The notes beneath the pieces are model-generated. The model was not told where the DNA came from. It saw nothing but the letters and a program-made list of their open reading frames with translations, and searched no databases. A stretch of DNA of 64,000 nt, taken from Candidatus Omnitrophota bacterium. GTDB lineage: Bacteria > Omnitrophota > Gorgyraeia > Gygaellales > Profunditerraquicolaceae. The position numbers were made by a program, and so were the translations under genes. Below, piece after piece: positions 1 through 31,781 of the stretch (position 1 is its first letter; every line of letters starts with the position of its first letter). The DNA is taken from the NCBI GenBank assembly GCA_041651115.1, contig JBAZJY010000003.1:270252-334251 (forward strand), given 5' to 3'.

Positions 1-390
1 GGCAATTGCCAGCGCTTCTTTAGAAATATCCACAGCTGTTATCTCTGCGTCCGGCAAAAACTTCGCCAGCGACACCGCAATGCATCCTGACCCCGTGCCG
101 AGATCAAGAATCTTAAGGCAGGGCCCGCCAATGCAACACGATAGTACCGTCTCAACTAATATTTCCGTTTCCGGCCGCGGGATGAGCACTGCCGGGCTCA
201 CCTTAAATTCAAGGCCCATAAATTCCGTTTTGCCTAAAATATATTCCAGCGGTTCGCCGCTGATCCTGCGCTTTAACGCCGCGGCAATCGCGCCGGATTC
301 ATCTTTAGTCAGTAATTTATCCCTGTCTATATATAACGACATGCGGCTGCGGTTTAAGACGCTGCTAAACAGGACTTCTGCCTCATTCAT
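1..390 (-). CDS. prmC: Release factor glutamine methyltransferase PrmC/HemK, N-terminal part (continues beyond window start)
   Basis: Translation of minus strand from ATG at 390: MNEAEVLFSSV...ILDLGTGSGCIAVSLAKF... SAM-methyltransferase motif; lies downstream of prfA with 8-nt overlap, the classic prfA-prmC arrangement. Confidence 0.8.
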   Translation of the reverse strand, partial: MNEAEVLFSSVLNRSRMSLYIDRDKLLTKDESGAIAAALKRRISGEPLEYILGKTEFMGLEFKVSPAVLIPRPETEILVETVLSCCIGGPCLKILDLGTGSGCIAVSLAKFLPDAEITAVDISKEALAIA

Positions 391-1441
391 GCTTTTTCTC
401 CTCGGACGCCTTGATCAGGGCATCCGAAAGCTCATCCATATCGCCGTCAAGTATTGCTTCCAGCCGGTGCGAAGTAAAATTTATCCGGTGGTCAGTGACC
501 CGGCGGTCGGGAAAATTATAAGTGCGTATTTTTTCACTCCGGTCGCCCGAACCGATCTGGGATTTTCTCTCCTGCGAAAGCTTCTTTATTTCCGCTTCGC
601 GCTTCATATCCAAAAGCCGCGCGCCGAGAATACGCATTGCCTTGGCCTTATTCTTTAACTGCGAACGCTCATCCTGACAGGCCACTACCACGCCCGTAGG
701 TATGTGCGTTATACGTACCGCGGAATCGGTCTTTTGCATATGCTGGCCGCCTGGCCCGGATGAACGATAAGTGTCAATCCTTAAATCGCTGGGATTGATC
801 GCCATATCAACTTCCTTCGGTTCGGCAAGCACAGCTACGGTAGCAGTAGAAGTATGGATACGGCCCTGGGCTTCGGTCTCCGGAACACGCTGCACCCGGT
901 GCACCCCGCTTTCAAATTTAAGACGCTTATAAGCGTCTCTTCCCCTGACGCTGAAAACAACTTCTTTAAAGCCGCCTAATTCCTTAGGGCTGCCGGACAT
1001 CGGCTCAAACACCCAGCCTTTGGCAGCTGCATACAGTGAATACATACGGTAAAGGTCAGCGGCAAACAACGCTGCCTCATCACCGCCTGTACCCTGGCGG
1101 ATCTCCACGATCAGGTCAGTGCCGGCGTCTTTATCTTCGCCTGCGAGCATAACCTTTAATTTCTGCTCTAACTCTGCCTGCTGGTTTTTCAGGCTTTCCA
1201 CTTCCGCAGTTGCCAATTCCATAAACTCCTTATCATGTTTTTCGCTAAAAACATGTTGGAGATCTGACGCCTGCTTGGAGATGTTTTTATACTGCCTGAA
1301 AAGCCTTACCGGATCGCTTAAATCCGAGAGCTCTTTGGCATAGCGGCTGTATGCTTCCTGGTCCACGGCAACTTCCTGCCTGCCCAGAAGCTCCTCAAGC
1401 TCTTCATAACGCTTTTCAAGCTTTTCTAATTGCTCGAACAT
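383..1441 (-). CDS. prfA: Peptide chain release factor 1
   Basis: 352 aa ORF with GGQ motif (SGPGGQHMQKTDSAVRITHIPTG) and RF1-type domain order. Confidence 0.95.
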   Translation of the reverse strand: MFEQLEKLEKRYEELEELLGRQEVAVDQEAYSRYAKELSDLSDPVRLFRQYKNISKQASDLQHVFSEKHDKEFMELATAEVESLKNQQAELEQKLKVMLAGEDKDAGTDLIVEIRQGTGGDEAALFAADLYRMYSLYAAAKGWVFEPMSGSPKELGGFKEVVFSVRGRDAYKRLKFESGVHRVQRVPETEAQGRIHTSTATVAVLAEPKEVDMAINPSDLRIDTYRSSGPGGQHMQKTDSAVRITHIPTGVVVACQDERSQLKNKAKAMRILGARLLDMKREAEIKKLSQERKSQIGSGDRSEKIRTYNFPDRRVTDHRINFTSHRLEAILDGDMDELSDALIKASEEKKHE

Positions 1442-1449
1442 GAACCCTC

Positions 1450-1650
1450 TTACTTCTTAGCGTATTTCTTAATGAATTTATCCACTCTTCCGGCGGAATC
1501 AACAAACTTCTGTTTGCCGCTGAAAAAAGGATGGCATTTTGAGCATACTTCAACGCGGATATTCGGTTTTGTCGAACGCGTATGTATCGTATTCCCGCAT
1601 GCGCACACGACCACGCAATCCTGGTACTTGGGGTGAATTTTCTCTTTCAT
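1450..1650 (-). CDS. rpmE: 50S ribosomal protein L31 (Zn-ribbon type)
   Basis: 66 aa, MKEKIHPKY...CxxC...CSKCHPFF typical L31; SD aaggagag upstream. Confidence 0.9.
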
Positions 1651-1667
1651 TTTTCTCTCCTTTTTTT

Positions 1668-1741
1668 AGGGACGGTTCTCAGGCCAAAGGAAAAGTGTCC
1701 CCATTCGGGGACATTTTTCTCCTTGGCTGAAAACCGTCCCT
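1668..1741. repeat. REP-like imperfect palindromic element, copy A (about 35-bp arms, nested hairpin)
   Basis: agggacggttctc...aaaggaaaagtgtcccc attc ggggacatttttctcctt...gaaaaccgtccct; sits 5 nt after rho stop and about 18 nt before rpmE start; related copy at 24195..24269. Confidence 0.8.
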
Positions 1742-1746
1742 AATCA

Positions 1747-3003
1747 TTACTGGTTCATACTGCCTAAAAATTCCTCGTTGTTCTTTGTCTTAAGGAGCTT
1801 TTCGATCAAGAGCTCCATTGCTTCCACGTTGGTCAACTCATTAAGCACTTTCCTTAATATCCATGCCTTCTGCAAGATATCCGGCTTAAGCAACAGCTCT
1901 TCGTGGCGGGTATTGGAACGCTTAATATCAATGGCCGGATAGATCCTGCGCTGGAAGAGGTTTCTGTCCAACTGCAGTTCCATATTGCCGGTGCCTTTAA
2001 ATTCTTCAAAGATCACATCGTCCATACGGCTGCCCGTATCTACCAGCGCCGTGGCAATGATCGTCAGGCTCCCGCCCTCTTCAATGGCGCGCGCAGCTCC
2101 GAAGAACCGCTTTGGTTTTTGCAGGGCATTGGAATCAATACCGCCGGACAATACCTTTCCGCTGTGCGGCACAACCGAGTTATAGGCGCGCGCAAGCCGG
2201 GTAATGCTGTCCAATAGTATAACCACGTCCCGCTTATGCTCAACCAGACGCTTTGCCTTCTCAAGCACGATCTCCGCTACCTGAACGTGCCTTTCCGGAG
2301 GCTCGTCAAACGTGGAAGAAATAACTTCGCCCTTTACGTTGCGCTGCATATCCGTGACTTCCTCGGGGCGCTCGTCGATCAAAAGTACGATCAATATCGT
2401 TTCCGGTTGATTAGTGACGATGGCATTGGCGATCTTCTGCAGTAGTACGGTCTTTCCGCTGTAAGGAGGCGCGACGATCATGCCGCGCTGCCCCTTGCCG
2501 ATAGGCGCTAAAAGGTCCATGATCCGCATTGACGCTTCCTTAGGATTGGTCTCCAGCACAAAGTGTTCGCGCGGATAAACCGGAGTAAGGTTATCAAAGA
2601 GTATCTTCTCTTTTACGTCTTCGGGATTTTCAAAATTCACCGCCTGCACCTTAAGCAAGGCAAAGTATTTTTCGCCTTCTTTGGGCGGGCGGATCTCCCC
2701 GCTTACCGTGTCTCCGGTGCGCAAATCAAATTTCCTGATCTGCGACGGAGATATATATATATCATCCGGGCAAGGCAGGTAATTATAATTGGGGCTCCTT
2801 AAAAAACCGAATCCTTCGGGAAGGATCTCTAAAATGCCCTCTCCGAACATCAGCCCTTCCTTTTCCGCCTGGCCCTGCAGGATCTTAAAGATCAGGTCCT
2901 GCTTTTTGAGCCCGCTCATGCCGTTGACATTCAATTCTTTTGCCAGCTTGTTGAGCTCGGTAATTTTCATTTGTTTAAGTTTACCAATGTCTAATTTTTC
3001 CAC
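1747..3003 (-). CDS. rho: Transcription termination factor Rho
   Basis: 418 aa; N-terminal Rho_N / cold-shock-like RNA-binding domain; RecA-type ATPase with Walker motifs; GTG start preceded by AGGAGG SD (3008..3013). Confidence 0.95.
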
Positions 3004-3015
3004 AACATCCTCCTA

Positions 3016-3302
3016 GCTGAGCCTCCTGTAAATAATTGACACATTGGAAGCCCGAGTTTTGGCCGTATGCAAGGCGCGACGACGAAGGCGTAGTCTTTAG
3101 CACTACGCCGAGGAGGAGCAACGCCGCAGACGGCCGAAAGGCGGGCTTCCCCTCATCTATACTATGGGCTGGCTGATTTTGGGCTGCGACTGCGTCACTC
3201 GTCCTTGGCGTAGCGCTTATTCGGCTACGCCTGCGTCCTCGTTCCTTGTCTCGCTCCAAAATCAGCTCAGCCAATGTGTCAATTATTTACAGGAGGCTCA
3301 GC
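3016..3302 (-). other. 287-bp structured element flanked by 32-bp perfect inverted repeats in the coaE-rho intergenic region (rho 5' leader); MITE-like or regulatory RNA structure
   Basis: 3016..3047 gctgagcctcctgtaaataattgacacattgg is the exact reverse complement of 3271..3302; the interior is GC-rich with nested dyads and two similar sub-hairpins (ggcgtagt...actacgcc and ggcgtagc...gctacgcc); no ORF. Confidence 0.7.
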
Positions 3303-3895
3303 AGATTCTCCACTTGTTTTTTTGTTTGTTCCCTTGTGCCGCTGTTATCTATTACAAAATCCGCTTTACGGACCTTAGCCGTTAAAGGCATCTGCGCCTT
3401 TATCCGCATCAATATGTCTTTGCCTGAAAGCGAAGCTTTCCTTTTTTGGGCGCGCTTGACCTGCGCCTTCCTGTCTGCGGTTACGACAATTACCTTATCC
3501 GCTAATTGCTGGAGCCCCGACTCAAAAAGCAGCGGGATATCCAAAACCGCAACTTTTTGCCGGCCTGTTTTAGCTTCTTTTTTTATAGCCTTGACCACAC
3601 CGGGATGCACAATACTATTTAATCTATTTAAAAGCCTGGGGTTTGAAAATACTATCTGCGAGAGCTTACCCCGGTCAATACTTTTGTCTTTTTGAACTAT
3701 GCCCCTGCCGAATAACGCGACAACTTTTTTGTACGCGGATGTTCCGGGCTTAATCAGGCCGTGAGCGATCTTGTCCGCGTCAACTACCTTAGCCCCATAG
3801 CCGCGCAATAAGGATGCTATTGTGGTCTTACCCGTGGCAAAACCGCCTGTTACTGCCACCACTGTCCTCTTATTCAACTTTTCCGGCTTCTTCAT
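3287..3895 (-). CDS. coaE: Dephospho-CoA kinase
   Basis: P-loop VAVTGGFATGKTT, CoaE family; start taken at MKKPEK; last codons lie inside the right arm of the inverted-repeat element. Confidence 0.85.
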   Translation of the reverse strand: MKKPEKLNKRTVVAVTGGFATGKTTIASLLRGYGAKVVDADKIAHGLIKPGTSAYKKVVALFGRGIVQKDKSIDRGKLSQIVFSNPRLLNRLNSIVHPGVVKAIKKEAKTGRQKVAVLDIPLLFESGLQQLADKVIVVTADRKAQVKRAQKRKASLSGKDILMRIKAQMPLTAKVRKADFVIDNSGTREQTKKQVENLLSLL

Positions 3896-5261
3896 ATAAA
3901 CGGGCGTATTTTCTTGCCGATTCTTCCCATGAAAAGTCGCACTGCATTGCGCTGGCAATCAACTTATTCCATTTATCTTTGGCGCTAAATGCCTTTAATG
4001 CGTCTTTCAGCGAATTGATCAGGTCGTCTTTTTTATAGCGCTGAAAAATAAAGCCGCATTTGGGAGTTACCGTATCTGCCAATCCGCCGGTTTTAAACAC
4101 AACCGGGATCGTGCCATACCTTAAGCTGATCAACTGCCCAAGGCCACAGGGCTCATATTTGGAAGGCATAAGAAAAATATCCGAACCCGCGTATATCTTA
4201 TGCGCCAAAACGTCGTCGAATTTAAGATGCAGGGACATGACCTTTGGGTATTTAGCCGCAATGCCGGATAAAAGTTTATGGTATTCCGCATCGCCCGTGC
4301 CCAGGATCACAATTTGCAAGTTCATCTTGCAGATTACATCCATTGCCTGGCTCAAAAGGTCAAAGCCTTTTTGCTCGGCCAAACGGGAAACGATCCCGAC
4401 TAAAGGCACATCCTTGTTCAAGGGAAGGCCACAGATTTCCTGTAATTGCTTTTTATCCTCGCTCTTTCCGCGCAGGTCGGAAGCCGTATAATCACTAGCA
4501 ATGATTTTATCAGCTCCCGGGTCCCAGATGGAATAATCCAAGCCGTTTAAAACCCCGAAAAGCCGCTTGCGCCGCTTAGCCAGCACGCCTTCCAGGCCAA
4601 AACCGAATTCAGAAGTTTGTATCTCTTTGCTGTAAGTAGGGCTGACAGTGTTGATGATATCGGAGAATACGATCCCGCCCTTTAAAAGGTTGATCCTGCC
4701 GAAAAATTCCAGGGTTTCCACGTCAAAGTATTTCCAGTCAATCCCGAGATCGGCGAATTCTTCCCTCGGAAACAGCCCTTGATAGCCGATATTATGAATG
4801 GTAAATACGGTCCTTGCGGCATTATAGAAAGGATCCGCGCTATAAAGCGTTTTCATGTAAACCGGGACCAGCGCCGACTGCCAGTCATGGCAGTGAATGA
4901 TATCGGGAGAAAAATCCAGCTCCTTTAAAAGGTCAATGCTCCTTTTGCAATAGTAGGAAAAACGTTTTAAGTTATCTTTATAATCGCCTGTTTTATCCCC
5001 GTAAAGCGATTCGCGTCCGAAATAAAAATCGTCTTCGATAAAATAGGCGCGCACGCCCTCGCCGATCACGGAAGAGACAATGTCCGGCTTTAACCGACGG
5101 ATCGCTGCCTTTGCATCCCGGACCTGTTTATAGCACGGCATAATCAGGATCACTTCATGGCCAAGTTCTTCCAAGGCAAGCGGCAAAGCCCCGGTTACAT
5201 CCGCCAAACCTCCGGTCTTGGCAAACGGCACTGCTTCCGACGCGCAGAATGCTATCTTCAT
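3870..5261 (-). CDS. glgA: Glycogen/starch synthase (GT5 family, ADP-glucose type)
   Basis: N-terminus MKIAFCASEAVPFAKTGGLADVTGALPLAL matches the GlgA signature; 463 aa. Confidence 0.85.
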   Translation of the reverse strand: MKIAFCASEAVPFAKTGGLADVTGALPLALEELGHEVILIMPCYKQVRDAKAAIRRLKPDIVSSVIGEGVRAYFIEDDFYFGRESLYGDKTGDYKDNLKRFSYYCKRSIDLLKELDFSPDIIHCHDWQSALVPVYMKTLYSADPFYNAARTVFTIHNIGYQGLFPREEFADLGIDWKYFDVETLEFFGRINLLKGGIVFSDIINTVSPTYSKEIQTSEFGFGLEGVLAKRRKRLFGVLNGLDYSIWDPGADKIIASDYTASDLRGKSEDKKQLQEICGLPLNKDVPLVGIVSRLAEQKGFDLLSQAMDVICKMNLQIVILGTGDAEYHKLLSGIAAKYPKVMSLHLKFDDVLAHKIYAGSDIFLMPSKYEPCGLGQLISLRYGTIPVVFKTGGLADTVTPKCGFIFQRYKKDDLINSLKDALKAFSAKDKWNKLIASAMQCDFSWEESARKYARLYEEAGKVE

Positions 5262-5264
5262 GGC

Positions 5265-7805
5265 TCAGTACTCCTCCGCTTCCAGCCAATTCTTTCCGGT
5301 TTTTACCGTCACTACTATAGGCACATCCAGGCGCAAGACATTTTCCATCCTGTCCTTTACCAGGGCCGCAAACCCGTCCATCTCTTTTTGCGGCACGTCA
5401 AATACCAATTCATCATGGATCTGCAGTACCATTTTAGAACCGCTCTTTCTTGACTCGATTTCCTTGTGTATCTCTATCATCGCCAGCTTTATCAGGTCGC
5501 TGGCAGTCCCTTGAATAGGCGTATTTACGGCTTTACGCTGGGCAAACTGCCTTATTCCCTGATTTTTATTATTGATCTCCGGGATATACCTGCGTCTGCC
5601 AAGGAGCGTTGAGACAAAACCGTCTTTTTTGGCTTTTTCTATCTGTTGCTGTATGTAGCCTTCAACCTTGGGATAACGGACAAAATAAGCGTCGATAAAA
5701 ACCTGCGCTTCATCAATCGGTATGCTCAAATCCTTGGAGAGGCCGAAGGAAGTCAGTCCGTAGACAATGCCGAAGTTCACCCTTTTAGCGGTATCGCGCA
5801 TCTGGCCGGTTATGTCTTTTTCGTCCAGGCCGTAAATCAATGCCGCGGTTGCTTTATGGATGTCGCGGTTATTCTTAAACGCGGCAATAAGATTATCATC
5901 CCCGGAAAGATGCGCCAGTATCCTTAATTCGATCTGGGAATAATCGCAGACCAAGAGCCGGCTATTATTGTAGGAAGCCACAATTGCCTGCCTGATGCGG
6001 CTGCCGATCTCCGTTCTCACCGGAAGATTCTGCAGGTTCGGATTGCTGGAGCTAAGCCTGCCGGTTTCGGTGGCAGTCTGGTTAAAAGAAGTGTGTATCC
6101 GGTTGGTTTGCGGGTCTGCCAGCTGCGGCAAAGTATCCACATAAGTTGTCTTTAGCTTCATCAGCTGACGGTATTCCAGCAAAAGGCGGGGCAGCTGATG
6201 CGAGCCCGCCAGCCTCTTTAACACTTCCTCGTCAGTAGAAGGCCCTGTTTTGCTTCTTTTAATTACCGGCAATTTCAGCTTTTCAAATAATACCTGGCTC
6301 AATTGCTTAGGCGAATTTATATTGAATTGCGTACCGCTTGCCTGATAGATTTCCTCGATCAATTGGATCAGCCTTTTCTCCAGATCTTTTGCCAGGCCTT
6401 TAAGGATATCCAGGTCTATCTTGATCCCGTTGAGCTCCATTTGAGAAAGAACTTCCGCAAGCGGCATTTCAAGATCGTAAAAAAGCTTCTCCAGCGACCG
6501 CTGGCGTAACATTTCTTCCAGCTTAGGTTTTAGCTGTAATAACAAGTTAAGGCCGCAGCCAGCCACAACTGCCTCCTGCGAGAGGCTTGTATCTAAGTAT
6601 TCCAGCGCCAGGTCGGAAAGAGAATACCCGGCTGCCGAAGGATTAACGAGGTAACCGGCGATCATCGTGTCAAAATACATGCCCTTAAGCATGGCCCCCT
6701 CTCTGGCCAGCGCGACCCTTATTTTTTTAAGGTCATGCCCGGTCTTCTTTATCTTAGGATCGGATAAAATACCTTTAATGCTGCCGTCCAATGATCCAAC
6801 GCGGAAAAATTTTCCTTGCGCAAAAAAAACAAGTCCTTCGTCCGGCTGGCCACAAATAAACAATTCGTCTCCGGCAGCCAGCATCCCCTGCAAATCTTCT
6901 TCGGGCATCAGAAGAACTTCTGCCTGCGGCTGTTTTGTTTCATCGTCAACCGGCAGGCCTTTGAGTAATTTTTTAAACTCAAGCTGCTTAAAAATACGGA
7001 ACAGCTCTTTGGTATCCGCAGCCCTGGCCATAAAGCGCTGCGCGTCAAAGTCTATGTCCACGCTCCTATCAAGGACAGCCAGTTCCTTGCTGAATTTGAT
7101 CGCGTCGGCTGCGGCGATAACCGCCTGTTTTATCTTTTCTTGTTTTATCTCTCCGGCCTTATCCAGCAGGTTTTCCACGCTGCCAAAGCCTTTGATCAAT
7201 TCTGTTGCGGTTTTTTCTCCGATGCCGCGCACGCCAGGGATATTATCCACGCTGTCGCCCATCAACGCGATCACATCGGTAACCTGCCCGGGGCTGACGC
7301 CGAATTCCTTACGCACGCCTTCAATGTCTAAAATAATGCCCTCTTCTTTGTATGGATTAAAAACTACCGTATTTTCATCAACCAATTGCAAAACGTCCTT
7401 ATCTGAACTGACAATAGTCACGGGTATGCCGGCCTGTTTTGCTTTTACGGCGATGGTGGCGATGATGTCATCCGCTTCAAAGCCTTGTTTTTCCAGTATG
7501 CTTATCCCGTAAGCGGAAATAACCTCTTTGATCAGGGGTATTTGGCTTGACAAGCCGTCAGGCATTGGCGGCCGCTGGATCTTATATTCTGCGAATTTTC
7601 TTGCCCGGAACGTATCCCTTGAAACGTCAAAACAAGCTGCCAGATACTGCGGTTTTTTTTCCTTTATGATCTTATTAAGCATGTTCAGGAAACCGTAGAC
7701 CGCGTTTGTCGGCTGGCCAAAAGACGTAGACAACCCTTTTAACGCATAGAATGCCCGGTAGCAAAAAGCCGTGGCATCGATTAAATACAGCCGCTTTTCA
7801 TCCAT
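5265..7805 (-). CDS. polA: DNA polymerase I
   Basis: 846 aa; 5'-3' exonuclease N-terminus (LIDATAFCYRAFYA) and C-terminal family A polymerase motifs (RRxAKxxNFGxxYG, QIHDEL). Confidence 0.95.
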   Translation of the reverse strand: MDEKRLYLIDATAFCYRAFYALKGLSTSFGQPTNAVYGFLNMLNKIIKEKKPQYLAACFDVSRDTFRARKFAEYKIQRPPMPDGLSSQIPLIKEVISAYGISILEKQGFEADDIIATIAVKAKQAGIPVTIVSSDKDVLQLVDENTVVFNPYKEEGIILDIEGVRKEFGVSPGQVTDVIALMGDSVDNIPGVRGIGEKTATELIKGFGSVENLLDKAGEIKQEKIKQAVIAAADAIKFSKELAVLDRSVDIDFDAQRFMARAADTKELFRIFKQLEFKKLLKGLPVDDETKQPQAEVLLMPEEDLQGMLAAGDELFICGQPDEGLVFFAQGKFFRVGSLDGSIKGILSDPKIKKTGHDLKKIRVALAREGAMLKGMYFDTMIAGYLVNPSAAGYSLSDLALEYLDTSLSQEAVVAGCGLNLLLQLKPKLEEMLRQRSLEKLFYDLEMPLAEVLSQMELNGIKIDLDILKGLAKDLEKRLIQLIEEIYQASGTQFNINSPKQLSQVLFEKLKLPVIKRSKTGPSTDEEVLKRLAGSHQLPRLLLEYRQLMKLKTTYVDTLPQLADPQTNRIHTSFNQTATETGRLSSSNPNLQNLPVRTEIGSRIRQAIVASYNNSRLLVCDYSQIELRILAHLSGDDNLIAAFKNNRDIHKATAALIYGLDEKDITGQMRDTAKRVNFGIVYGLTSFGLSKDLSIPIDEAQVFIDAYFVRYPKVEGYIQQQIEKAKKDGFVSTLLGRRRYIPEINNKNQGIRQFAQRKAVNTPIQGTASDLIKLAMIEIHKEIESRKSGSKMVLQIHDELVFDVPQKEMDGFAALVKDRMENVLRLDVPIVVTVKTGKNWLEAEEY

Positions 7806-31395: not shown

Positions 31396-31473
<78 letters not shown>

Positions 31474-31505
31474 CATACTCGCTATTGCTTCTGTCAATTA
31501 AGTGG

Positions 31506-31594
31506 GCGGAAGAGGATTTTTAAGCCACCGTTATTTACTTTCAGTGGCGAAATCCCGCCTTTAATGGCGGGAGAACCTCCCGATTCCCTTCCGC
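31506..31594. other. 89-bp palindromic structured element between tRNA-Gly and tRNA-Leu (7-bp terminal stem GCGGAAG/CTTCCGC enclosing three hairpins); not a canonical tRNA
   Basis: Perfect terminal complementarity and internal stems GCCAC/GTGGC and CCCGCC/GGCGGG; no T-loop. Confidence 0.4.
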
Positions 31595-31610
31595 ACAATG
31601 TTAATAGTAG

Positions 31611-31692
31611 TGCGGACGGAGGGAGTTGAACCCCCAAGGGTCACCCCATCGGCTCCTAAGGCCGACGCGTATGCCAATTCCGCCACGTCCGC
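31611..31692 (-). tRNA. tRNA-Leu (anticodon TAG), long variable arm, CCA not encoded
   Basis: GCGGACG acceptor; anticodon loop CUUAGGA with G37; variable arm GGGGUGACCCUU; T-loop UUCAACU. Confidence 0.85.
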
Positions 31693-31708
31693 ATAGCGGA
31701 TAAAATAG

Positions 31709-31781
31709 TGAGCCTCCCGCGATTCGAACGCGGCACGGCCATCTTAAAAGGATGGTGCTCTACCAAATGAGCTAGAGGCCC
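31709..31781 (-). tRNA. tRNA-Lys (anticodon TTT), CCA not encoded
   Basis: GGGCCUC acceptor; anticodon loop CUUUUAA; T-loop UUCGAAU. Confidence 0.85.

Follow-up and report, generated by a model that had tools for sequence, protein, structure and literature searches.

Introduction

[quoted passage not shown] Here, we analysed a stretch of 64,000 nucleotides from a Candidatus Omnitrophota bacterium (64 kb, called the window throughout) in which a 287-bp palindromic element lies between the genes coaE and rho, and we compared it with orthologous loci and with homologous copies in other genomes and metagenomes. We consider it likely that the window element is a mobile, MITE-like insertion at an operon junction and that it belongs to a non-autonomous family widespread in Candidatus Omnitrophota.

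Several described repeats come close to this element. Correia elements, or NEMIS, of Neisseria are small non-autonomous repeats with TIRs of about 24-26 bp and TA termini, co-transcribed with their neighbours (PMC2229807, PMC2649163, PMC10969869); in the RNA, the TIRs pair into a long helix that RNase III is able to cut, and the elements can alter the expression of adjacent genes (PMC2649163, PMC10969869). The ERIC/IRU and YPAL repeats of enterobacteria are imperfect palindromes with TA termini and contiguous ORFs, located in intergenic parts of operons that are transcribed. They are transcribed or translated together with the genes upstream of them, affect the mRNA according to the way they face, and have a hairpin that is remodelled when ribosomes enter (PMC2229807). 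Rickettsia palindromic elements (RPEs) are mobile palindromes open in one frame and translated within host messages (PMC2229807). Neisseria REP2 and Borrelia IR-A/IR-B lie directly upstream of ORFs in one orientation, contain two internal stem-loops and supply a ribosome-binding site (PMC3184786). Chunjie, a MITE of Geobacter uraniireducens, is reported to enter an operon without disturbing it, according to the mention of it cited in PMC10969869. Among candidate mobilising enzymes, ISY100/IS630 targets TA (PMC2170065). The family of the window element is in kind a bacterial MITE, with TIRs, TA-type flanks, a stable hairpin, dispersed copies, and filled and empty sites. Searches of the literature by name and by literal sequence strings returned no description of it.

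The window element is a lineage-specific insertion between coaE and rho

The window contains, all on the minus strand, prfA, a short ORF, rho, the element, coaE, glgA and polA; the short ORF between prfA and rho is called ribosomal protein L31 on the source contig. The features needed to describe the junction are as follows.

3016..3302, minus strand: whole element, 287 bp (perfect inverted repeat; exact deletion restores the junction of the relatives; full-length match to the family profile)
3287..3895, minus strand: coaE, 202 aa, with its stop TAA at 3287-3289 inside the arm (Pfam CoaE)
1747..3003, minus strand: rho, 418 aa, GTG start at 3001-3003 (Pfam Rho_N, Rho_RNA_bind and ATP-synt_ab; length of the relatives)
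3009..3014, minus strand: native rho Shine-Dalgarno (SD) sequence AGGAGG (collinear with the SD of the relatives)

The best relatives of the window Rho (89-94% identity, 417-422 aa, mostly 418) are named Candidatus Omnitrophota or Omnitrophica. Nine orthologous loci from three related lineages (L002-L010, Rho 92-94% identical) conserve the order polA-glgA-coaE-rho-rpmE-prfA, and in all nine the spacer is absent: the two genes share a 13-nt overlap, with coaE stopping 10 nt inside rho. On the minus strand of the window, the insertion reads ...CAAGTGGAGAATCT[287 bp]TAGGAGGATGTTGTGGAAAAATTAG, and an empty coaE-rho site would be expected to read GAGAATCT(T/A)AGGAGGATGTTGTGG. When exactly 3016-3302 was removed, the junction became collinear and in frame with the relatives and CoaE ended in ..QVENLRRMLWKN*, the relatives ending in ..QVEKIRRQLWKN*, ..KIRRLLWKS* and ..QIRRLLWRN*. 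The overlap in the nine loci, together with an exact deletion that restores both a collinear junction and a family-typical CoaE C-terminus, shows that the element is a precise, lineage-specific insertion of 287 bp. This insertion broke the ancestral 13-nt translational overlap of coaE and rho and rewrote the CoaE C-terminus. The element now supplies the last four CoaE residues and the stop (arm-encoded LSLL*), so that the tail reads LLSLL* where the reconstructed ancestor had ..RRMLWKN*. In the same metagenome sample, a contig of a related Omnitrophota population (L006, ERZ27247363:k141_2061141, Rho 93% identical) carries the empty coaE/rho overlap.

The untranslated gap between coaE and rho is 283 nt. 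The native rho SD lies 1 nt downstream of the element (the gap being position 3015) and 5 nt upstream of the GTG; since 12 nt separate the element from the rho start, this SD survives. An earlier note, made from the window sequence alone, had pointed to an unusually long coaE-rho spacer with an arm encoding the last coaE codons, and both the gap and, by translation and the Pfam match, the arm-encoded LSLL* tail with its TAA at 3287-3289 bear this out. It had also placed the rho SD at 3008-3013, 3 nt from an arm; the AGGAGG is present, at 3009-3014 and 1 nt from the arm. Scans predicted neither a sigma-70 promoter nor an intrinsic terminator inside the window element, so transcription of rho most likely still passes through it.

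An ENA contig (ERZ27247363:k141_2792708, 157.6 kb) encodes exactly this CoaE, and its DNA around the gene is identical to window 287-6895; the same protein, with the tail that the arm encodes, is found on a second contig. The gene call for rho on the source ENA contig begins at Met12 and gives 407 aa, 11 codons short (L001:3926; window 2970-3003); all relatives and the position of the SD support the 418-aa form with its GTG start at 3003.

Copies of the element are dispersed in Candidatus Omnitrophota

The earlier note had named a search for other copies among its checks. Exact 23-mers of the window arm had no match in GTDB genomes or JGI metagenomes, so the source genome and close copies are absent from these collections. 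The family was retrieved by a degenerate pattern built from hairpin-tip positions that the two diverged halves of the element share. This pattern gave 31 GTDB loci, 28 of them named Omnitrophota or Omnitrophica and several at contig ends, and a profile search confirmed 30 of the 31, rejecting the single Actinomycetota match. Even with so restrictive a pattern, up to five copies were found in one metagenome-assembled genome (MAG). Full-length GTDB copies are 272-296 bp long and 84-91% identical to the window copy, and metagenome copies reach 305 bp. Two copies in one MAG can be up to 96.5% identical, and copies that are 99.3% identical occur at different sites in different MAGs.

A second scan compared a near-invariant 20-mer of hairpin A, one of the two internal hairpins, with metagenomes. 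It returned at least 120 loci; among the matches listed, 106 had family matches and 24 were full-length two-hairpin copies. In total, more than 60 two-hairpin copies were collected, more than 30 of them being further copies in metagenome contigs (again among the matches listed). The plasmid collection gave one weak, irrelevant match.

Besides the window and its nine empty orthologues, three other filled/empty orthologous pairs were found: L039/L091, L017 and L023/L032, and L125 and L160/L035. Their empty sites read AAT TAA ATG, GTT TAATG and CAT TAA TA ATG, all of them TAA(N0-2)ATG junctions, and the right boundary in the filled sites reads ...CTCAG|TA(A)ATG. These results show that the element is a member of a dispersed family, for which orthologous sites with and without a copy are known at four different junctions. 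The MITE origin that the earlier note had offered as its alternative is thus supported in substance, by the precise lineage-specific insertion and the more than 60 dispersed two-hairpin copies.

Variant architectures were also seen in Omnitrophota MAGs (L024:284-415, L027:6001-6132, L073:3774-3923, L081:243-480, L021:1056-1324 and L030:3936-4205). They include single-hairpin forms with family-type or divergent arms, those at L024:284-415 and L027:6001-6132 having Omnitrophota-type arms, and a variant of about 150 bp in L073. A distant two-hairpin subfamily (nzgw323) keeps the loop motifs and has different arms and outer stems. The repeat family looks modular.

A three-way fold is kept by compensatory change

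Read in gene sense, that is, along the minus strand, the window element consists of the following parts.

3271..3302, minus strand: 5' arm, element nt 1-32
3165..3270, minus strand: hairpin B (predicted folds; covariation in helices 2-5 of alignment A3)
3151..3164, minus strand: AT-rich linker between hairpins B and A (alignments A2 and A3; regional identity 0.55; frame analysis)
3048..3150, minus strand: hairpin A, inverted homologue of B (folds, half-to-half alignment, covariation)
3016..3047, minus strand: 3' arm, element nt 256-287

The arm sequence, GCTGAGCCTCCTGTAAATAATTGACACATTGG, occurs exactly twice within the window, at 3016-3047 on the plus strand and 3271-3302 on the minus strand, with 0 mismatches, and 0 such matches are expected from 100 shuffles. 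The perfect 32-bp inverted repeat of the earlier note is thereby confirmed, as is its GC-rich interior (59% GC, the whole window having 48%). The element folds with z = -14.1 and -13.0 on the two strands relative to shuffled sequence. The two sub-hairpins noted before, ggcgtagt..actacgcc and ggcgtagc..gctacgcc, are both present, but to call them similar falls short: the halves of the element are homologous in inverted orientation, with 62% identity in the interior (score 43 vs -33 +/- 8.6 for shuffles), and show no similarity when compared directly, whereas the adjoining arms agree at 32/32 positions. In the sense RNA, hairpin B has purine-rich internal loops with AAGGA and GAGGA motifs and the tip stem GGCGTAGC/GCTACGCC, while hairpin A has the pyrimidine-rich loops GCUCCUCCUC and UCGUCGUCGCGCC and contains a core of about 57 nt shared with single-hairpin elements on GC-rich contigs, described below.

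The 5' arm of the window copy holds stops in all three frames, TGA at nt 3-5, TAA at nt 14-16 (the coaE stop, 3287-3289) and TGA at nt 22-24, together with the anti-SD sequence CCTCCT at 3291-3296. This anti-SD pairs with an SD-like AGGAGG at 3022-3027 in the 3' arm, whose final base is C where the family has T. Compared with the arm consensus, the window copy has five differences (positions 1, 12, 13, 22 and 24), each of them mirrored in the opposite arm (32/32). Such mirroring suggests homogenisation, by hairpin or cruciform repair or by copying of one end, and not mere youth of the insertion. The copy at L103 also begins GCTGAG. TTGACA in the window arms is specific to this copy, the family sequence there being GGGCAC.

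For the fold, 20 full-length copies were aligned in sense orientation and the paired cells were counted for each model. Arm positions 7-16 vary among these copies (CCTCCGATAA, TCATCAGCAA, GCCCCAATAA, CCTTCGATAG and others), and within each copy the arms stay 27-32/32 complementary. The hairpin tips covary as GTAG/CTAC, GTAT/ATAC, GTAC/GTAC and GTAA/TTAC. A three-way fold, made of the 32-bp closing helix, hairpin B and hairpin A, paired 94.8% of cells, slid controls pairing 34-38%. Double-sided change was observed in 29 of 104 pairs, 17 outside the arms and 12 at arm positions, a level reached by 0 of 500 shuffles. These alignments show that the family keeps a predicted three-way fold by compensatory change. 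A single extended hairpin was also considered; it gained only two covarying pairs outside the arms, and the three-way fold was preferred. The interior loops are almost invariant across copies, purine-rich in B and pyrimidine-rich in A in gene sense, and the regional identities are 0.84-0.87 for the hairpins, 0.69 for the middle segment of the arm and 0.55 for the linker. Counts of G.U vs A.C gave no strand signal, and minimum free energies (MFEs) of the family copies were similar on both strands.

The Rfam scan that the earlier note had called for was run at gathering and at lenient thresholds. For the window, the family members and the GC-rich relatives, it gave nothing beyond tRNAs and hairpin-like noise below threshold. 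The only Rfam matches in the window come from three clustered tRNA genes at 31401-31781, minus strand.

The family occupies operon stop/start junctions in one orientation

Copies were oriented as the window copy in gene sense (arm, B, linker, A, arm). In 17 of the 20 GTDB copies, a downstream ORF begins 0-22 nt, mostly 0-6 nt, past the last base of the element, and in 16 of 20 the stop of a co-directional upstream ORF falls between -29 and +36 of the first base. The upstream genes recurrently stop at the arm codons TGA(3-5), TAA(14-16) and TGA(34-36). With the opposite orientation as a control, the corresponding counts were 3/20 and 5/20, all of them short dubious ORFs. The deduplicated metagenome set gave the same picture among the matches listed: a downstream start within 0-25 nt in 23 of 25 copies and an upstream stop at or near the 5' arm in 21 of 23, opposite-orientation controls giving 4/23 and 6/28. 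About 90% of copies thus lie between two co-directional, functionally unrelated genes with one polarity. The genes downstream are topA, miaA, a GH1 glycosidase gene, lspA, trmD, uppS, a thyA-like gene, murE, dnaG and a nuoH-like gene; those upstream, identified by eye, include dprA, ftsI, tgt, genes for an RNase E/G homologue and an AcrB-like pump, and a response regulator gene.

The ORF positions, taken with the filled/empty pairs, indicate that the family occupies operon stop/start junctions in a single orientation, and the window copy follows this polarity. A regulon or riboswitch was considered and rejected: the structure is conserved, but the downstream genes are unrelated housekeeping genes and there is no Rfam match. 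The earlier note had reasoned that lack of the structure in related genomes, combined with many dispersed identical copies, would make the element purely a MITE. The element is indeed absent from the relatives and the copies are dispersed, but the family has in addition a covarying fold, a fixed polarity and features of stop, ORF and SD.

An open frame crosses the element in constant phase

The arms carry signals that would be read by ribosomes. In gene sense, all three frames are closed within about 40 nt in 15 of 20 copies. In 32 of 34 distinct sites, the arm motif AAATAATGG contains an ATG at nt 20-22. The frame of this ATG, here called the bridge frame, has no stop before the end of the element in 26 of the 32, and in 20 of the 32 its stop falls exactly at the junction. 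The junction stop is made of the terminal T and a following AA, AG or GA, and it overlaps the downstream ATG or lies within a few nucleotides of it (TAATG, TGATG, TAAATG). On the antisense strand, 31 of 34 sites have this ATG too, and its frame is open in only 1 of the 31. Furthermore, GGAGG or GGGG is found 11 nt from the 3' end in 11 of 20 copies, at SD distance from the downstream start and paired with CCTCC of the 5' arm.

Elements of 284, 286, 287, 288 and 290 bp were seen, and the reading phase was always restored. One-base indels in the tip loops are offset by indels in the linker, the most variable part of the family in both length and sequence, so that the frame in which a block of about 20 residues is read differs between copies, all four combinations being present. 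The three codon positions of the bridge frame have similar numbers of substitutions (67/61/60), and synonymous changes are no more frequent relative to non-synonymous ones (58:130) than in the other frames (49:139 and 47:141). The peptide had no Pfam match. These even substitutions, the equal synonymous fraction and the lack of a Pfam match indicate that the conserved feature is an open frame with a fixed entry and exit phase, and not a protein. The bridge frame is 88-90 codons long, and about 100 clusters of 88-90-aa 'hypothetical proteins' in public gene calls (P0241-P0340) come from it. The contigs that carry them are mostly about 1-3 kb long, as would be expected if the repeat breaks assemblies.

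In the window copy, this frame takes the following form.

2981..3286, minus strand: stop-free bridge frame (mechanical ORF 2981..3274; family-wide conservation of the frame)

It opens right after the coaE stop and contains an in-frame TTG at 3272-3274 (nt 29). The family ATG at nt 20-22 is ATT here, both arms having changed in concert, and the coaE stop shares the frame three codons upstream. With C as its terminal base, this copy forms no junction stop; the frame continues past the junction to a TAA at 2981-2983, which lies 20 nt inside rho but is not in the rho frame. This resembles the ancestral geometry with its coaE stop 10 nt inside rho. The statement of the earlier note that the interior has no ORF is therefore wrong, a 97-codon ORF (3274..2981, minus strand, TTG start) spanning the whole element.

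The conserved inner arm (GATAAATAATGG, A3 columns 12-24) itself looks like a stop/start junction (TAA ATA ATG) and resembles empty sites (TTAATAATG, TTAAATG, TTTAATG). In addition, the first 13 nt of the L039 arm match the sequence at the empty orthologous site in L091 at 10 of 13 positions. The likeness could be a coincidence, or it could reflect a preference for targets that look like the element ends. The idea that an arm segment is copied from the target or guides the element to it was rejected: the other pairs gave no support, and generic SD/TAA/ATG junction features explain the L039/L091 likeness.

Flanks and GC-rich relatives bear on mobilisation

The arm consensus of the family is (A)CTGAG-N8-10-AAATAAT-N6-ATTGG, and 13 of 20 copies have T|A...T|A flanks compatible with TA duplication. 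These flanks point to a mobilising enzyme of the IS630/Tc1-mariner type.

About 50 metagenome loci among the matches listed match only the core of hairpin A, of about 57 nt (GCnGCGTTGCTCCTCCTCGGCGTA - variable tip - TACGCnnTCGTCGTCGCGCCTTGC). There, on contigs with a GC content of 59-76%, the core forms the apex of palindromes with a single hairpin and a length of roughly 200 bp. It is almost invariant across these loci (L042-L161; for example L044:3505-3561, L049:1984-2038, L078:370-431 and L113:1197-1258). The palindromes have several unrelated or distantly related classes of arm, GTGTCCTGAG... being one arm sequence in the GC-rich hosts, and most are flanked as TA|GTG...CAC|TA, often CTAG; TA flanks are frequent even on contigs of about 70% GC, where TA is rare. 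These elements showed no gene polarity among the matches listed, with 16 '+' and 12 '-' for the upstream flanks and 15 '+' and 19 '-' for the downstream flanks. On one GC-rich contig, a neighbouring protein has named relatives only in Planctomycetota (45-50% identity), and at least this one contig is probably from Planctomycetota. Some GC-rich arms (GTGTCCTGAGTCGGAAATACG...) resemble by eye the Omnitrophota arm (ACTGAGCCTCCGATAAATAATGG...). This likeness suggests that the Omnitrophota and GC-rich elements form one superfamily, and conservation of the 57-nt core across phyla points to a strongly constrained interaction.

A candidate mechanism for tolerance inside operons

We propose that the arms and hairpins most likely serve transposition as a structure recognised at the DNA level. 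Once inserted, the element would be tolerated inside an operon through its stops, its ATG, its open frame, its junction stop and, optionally, its SD. After finishing the upstream gene in the 5' arm, ribosomes would re-initiate at the arm ATG a few nucleotides away; their passage would melt the closing helix and the hairpins and shield the RNA from Rho-dependent polarity; and by terminating on or next to the downstream start codon they would keep the two genes translationally coupled. The GGAGG of the 3' arm, present in about half of the copies, would stay masked by the 5' arm unless the helix were opened. Only the sense orientation offers an open frame, and selection for it may thus have fixed the polarity. 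In the window copy, if it were untranslated, a perfect 32-bp helix would stand 1 nt upstream of the rho SD.

For the translated bridge taken by itself, we see the case as nearly balanced, leaning slightly against. The wider idea that the family evolved to colonise operon interiors, with arm stops, a phase-constrained bridge cistron ferrying ribosomes across about 290 nt and a hairpin core, nearly invariant from Omnitrophota of about 48% GC to contigs of about 70% GC, acting as recognition module for mobilisation, is put forward tentatively.

Several observations weigh against parts of this picture. Translation of the bridge frame is predicted from sequence; the frame is interrupted in about 6 of 38 copies, no SD precedes the arm ATG, and two hallmarks of the family, this ATG and the stop at the junction, are missing from the window copy. 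Were ribosomes to translate the mRNA across the element, selection at the RNA level would hardly explain the covarying helices, and the strand counts give no signal. The polarity could come in part from insertion coupled to replication or transcription. As to mobility, no target duplication is visible at the window copy, where the flanks are T|G...C|T and the insert is exactly 287 bp; a model of TA duplication followed by three substitutions predicts the same insert length at this site. In the other pairs, the filled sites fall 1-14 nt short of their diverged empty orthologues at the left boundary, which is compatible with a TA duplication and does not prove it. The profile search found no second family copy in the window, nor any in the 117 kb covered from the closest relatives. 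Finally, no transposase or autonomous partner was found, in that no arm-like motifs bracket a larger segment in the 1.1 Mb of fetched loci.

Alternative explanations

The strongest rival places the function in the RNA. The element would be an intercistronic module, either an RNase III processing site that parts the two cistrons and unmasks the downstream SD, like T7 early intercistronic sites or Correia-like repeats, or a protein-binding structure with its GGA-rich B and YC-rich A loops. The covarying three-way fold, the nearly invariant internal loops and the polarity fixed relative to transcription all fit this idea, as does the pairing of a 5'-arm anti-SD with a 3'-arm GGAGG in about half of the copies. 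The perfect 32-bp arm helix predicted in the co-transcript is longer than the 20 bp or so that mark Correia-like repeats, whose TIR helices are RNase III substrates (PMC2649163, PMC10969869). Nevertheless, ribosomes would melt the fold if the conserved open frame were translated, and with neither G.U/A.C asymmetry nor different MFEs on the two strands, structure at the DNA level explains the covariation equally well. The GC-rich single-hairpin relatives share the core without any polarity, and the module would leave the compensated, frame-keeping indels unexplained. We regard it as unlikely, though an RNA module and a translated bridge are compatible and do not exclude each other.

A small mobile gene of 88-90 aa, flanked by inverted repeats and encoding a functional peptide, would account for a stop-ended ATG frame of constant length in 26 of 32 sites and for the roughly 100 clusters of this size predicted by gene callers. 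Against it, there is no excess of third-position changes (67/61/60), the synonymous fraction is that of the other frames, blocks of about 20 residues are read in different frames among copies, no Pfam match exists, the ATG lacks an SD, and the window copy lacks the ATG. Such a gene is quite improbable.

A REP/REPIN-type element would be moved by a RAYT enzyme (Y1/HUH) acting on single-stranded hairpins, with replication providing the orientation bias. Two inverted GC-rich hairpins with GTAG/CTAC tips, a strong orientation bias and a window copy without a clear target-site duplication are what one would expect of it. The GTAG is however not invariant, the tips covarying with GTAT/ATAC, GTAC/GTAC and GTAA/TTAC; the 32-bp TIRs with T...A flanks, and TA|GTG...CAC|TA in the GC-rich relatives, are typical of TA-duplicating DDE transposition; and the copy density is low, at one per 64 kb. 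No RAYT gene was seen, none having been systematically searched for. We hold this origin to be very improbable.

Rho is autoregulated through its leader in E. coli, and the window element, highly structured, lies immediately upstream of rho. The earlier note had accordingly seen in it a rho-specific cis-regulatory or processing leader, and a conserved autoregulatory leader could act as a Rho-dependent attenuator or processing site. This reading fails: the nine orthologous loci of three lineages have a 13-nt overlap and no leader, the same element precedes unrelated genes elsewhere (topA, murE, dnaG, trmD, miaA, uppS, lspA and others), and its removal restores the ancestral CoaE C-terminus. A conserved rho leader is thus extremely doubtful. 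Any effect on rho expression is incidental to the insertion, and the element is no evolved rho regulator.

An assembly artefact, a palindromic chimera of the metagenome assembler, is scarcely credible even for a window taken from a MEGAHIT metagenome contig, as the interior is an imperfect palindrome (62% between halves), a second contig encodes an identical CoaE with its arm-encoded tail, and more than 60 homologous two-hairpin copies exist in independent NCBI, JGI and ENA assemblies.

Significance

For the locus, recognising the palindrome as a recent insertion and not a rho regulator removes a tempting regulatory story. Seen as a rho leader, the element is nothing out of the ordinary and its position is incidental, whereas the family to which it belongs is a moderate surprise. 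The family shows how a selfish element may persist in small, operon-dense genomes in which almost every site is coding, by joining palindromes at the DNA level with features that make it tolerable in the mRNA, namely entry stops, an open frame, an exit stop on the next start and often an SD of its own. If the bridge is indeed translated, the element would be a natural portable device that keeps translational coupling across a long structured spacer, with a potential use in synthetic operons. There is also a consequence for annotation: about 100 'hypothetical protein' clusters derive from the repeat, which breaks assemblies and shifts the called ends of genes.

Comparison with known systems

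The family has the marks of a MITE in that it is non-autonomous, 272-305 bp long, with arms 27-32/32 complementary, dispersed copies, and presence or absence at orthologous sites; a cognate autonomous insertion sequence with the same TIRs was not found in the 1.1 Mb of fetched loci. When tested for membership, the element did not group with REP/REPIN elements, riboswitch-type leaders, rho leaders or protein-coding genes.

It resembles Correia elements as a small non-autonomous repeat whose TIRs can form a helix in co-transcripts, and by analogy it is plausible that the 32-bp helix is an RNase III substrate. Correia elements are however 104-157 bp long with a single stem, are found in both orientations, and carry outward promoters and an IHF site, the 155-bp form stopping all frames. 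The family, in contrast, is 272-305 bp long and has two internal hairpins, a fixed polarity, a frame that reads through and a strict location at operon junctions. ERIC and YPAL share with the family the character of operon-internal, TA-ended palindromes with ORFs, but ERIC occurs in both orientations, exposes an RNase E site, has no described arrangement of stop, ATG, open frame and junction stop, and shows no sequence similarity to the family.

Chunjie, as far as its accounts in PMC10969869 and PMC3184786 go, is alike in its size of 178-235 bp, its very stable hairpins and its insertion into an operon without disruption. It differs in having 21-bp TIRs and 9-bp direct repeats and in being mostly located in ordinary intergenic regions, and these accounts describe neither a fixed polarity nor a bridging frame. 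REP2 and IR-A/IR-B have no TIRs and carry a promoter and the downstream start codon, REP2 preceding a set of co-regulated genes, whereas the family has 32-bp TIRs, no predicted promoter and unrelated downstream genes. RPEs insert in frame inside genes and join the host protein, while the frame of the family would be a separate mini-cistron delimited by the arm stops and the junction stop.

With MITEs of the IS630/Tc1-mariner type, such as RUP, the family shares T...A flanks (13/20 copies), TA flanks in its GC-rich relatives and a usual TIR length. It departs from them in having no matching transposase in the 1.1 Mb fetched and no TA duplication at the window copy. It is also unusual in that its arms vary and covary between copies while the interior is most conserved. 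Membership of an IS630-derived class is unproven.

The family differs from all the systems compared here in a combination and not in single features. This combination consists of strict targeting of junctions, a near-absolute polarity, a mini-cistron that appears constrained in phase and not in sequence, covarying arms around a conserved interior, and a core shared with elements on GC-rich contigs of other organisms.

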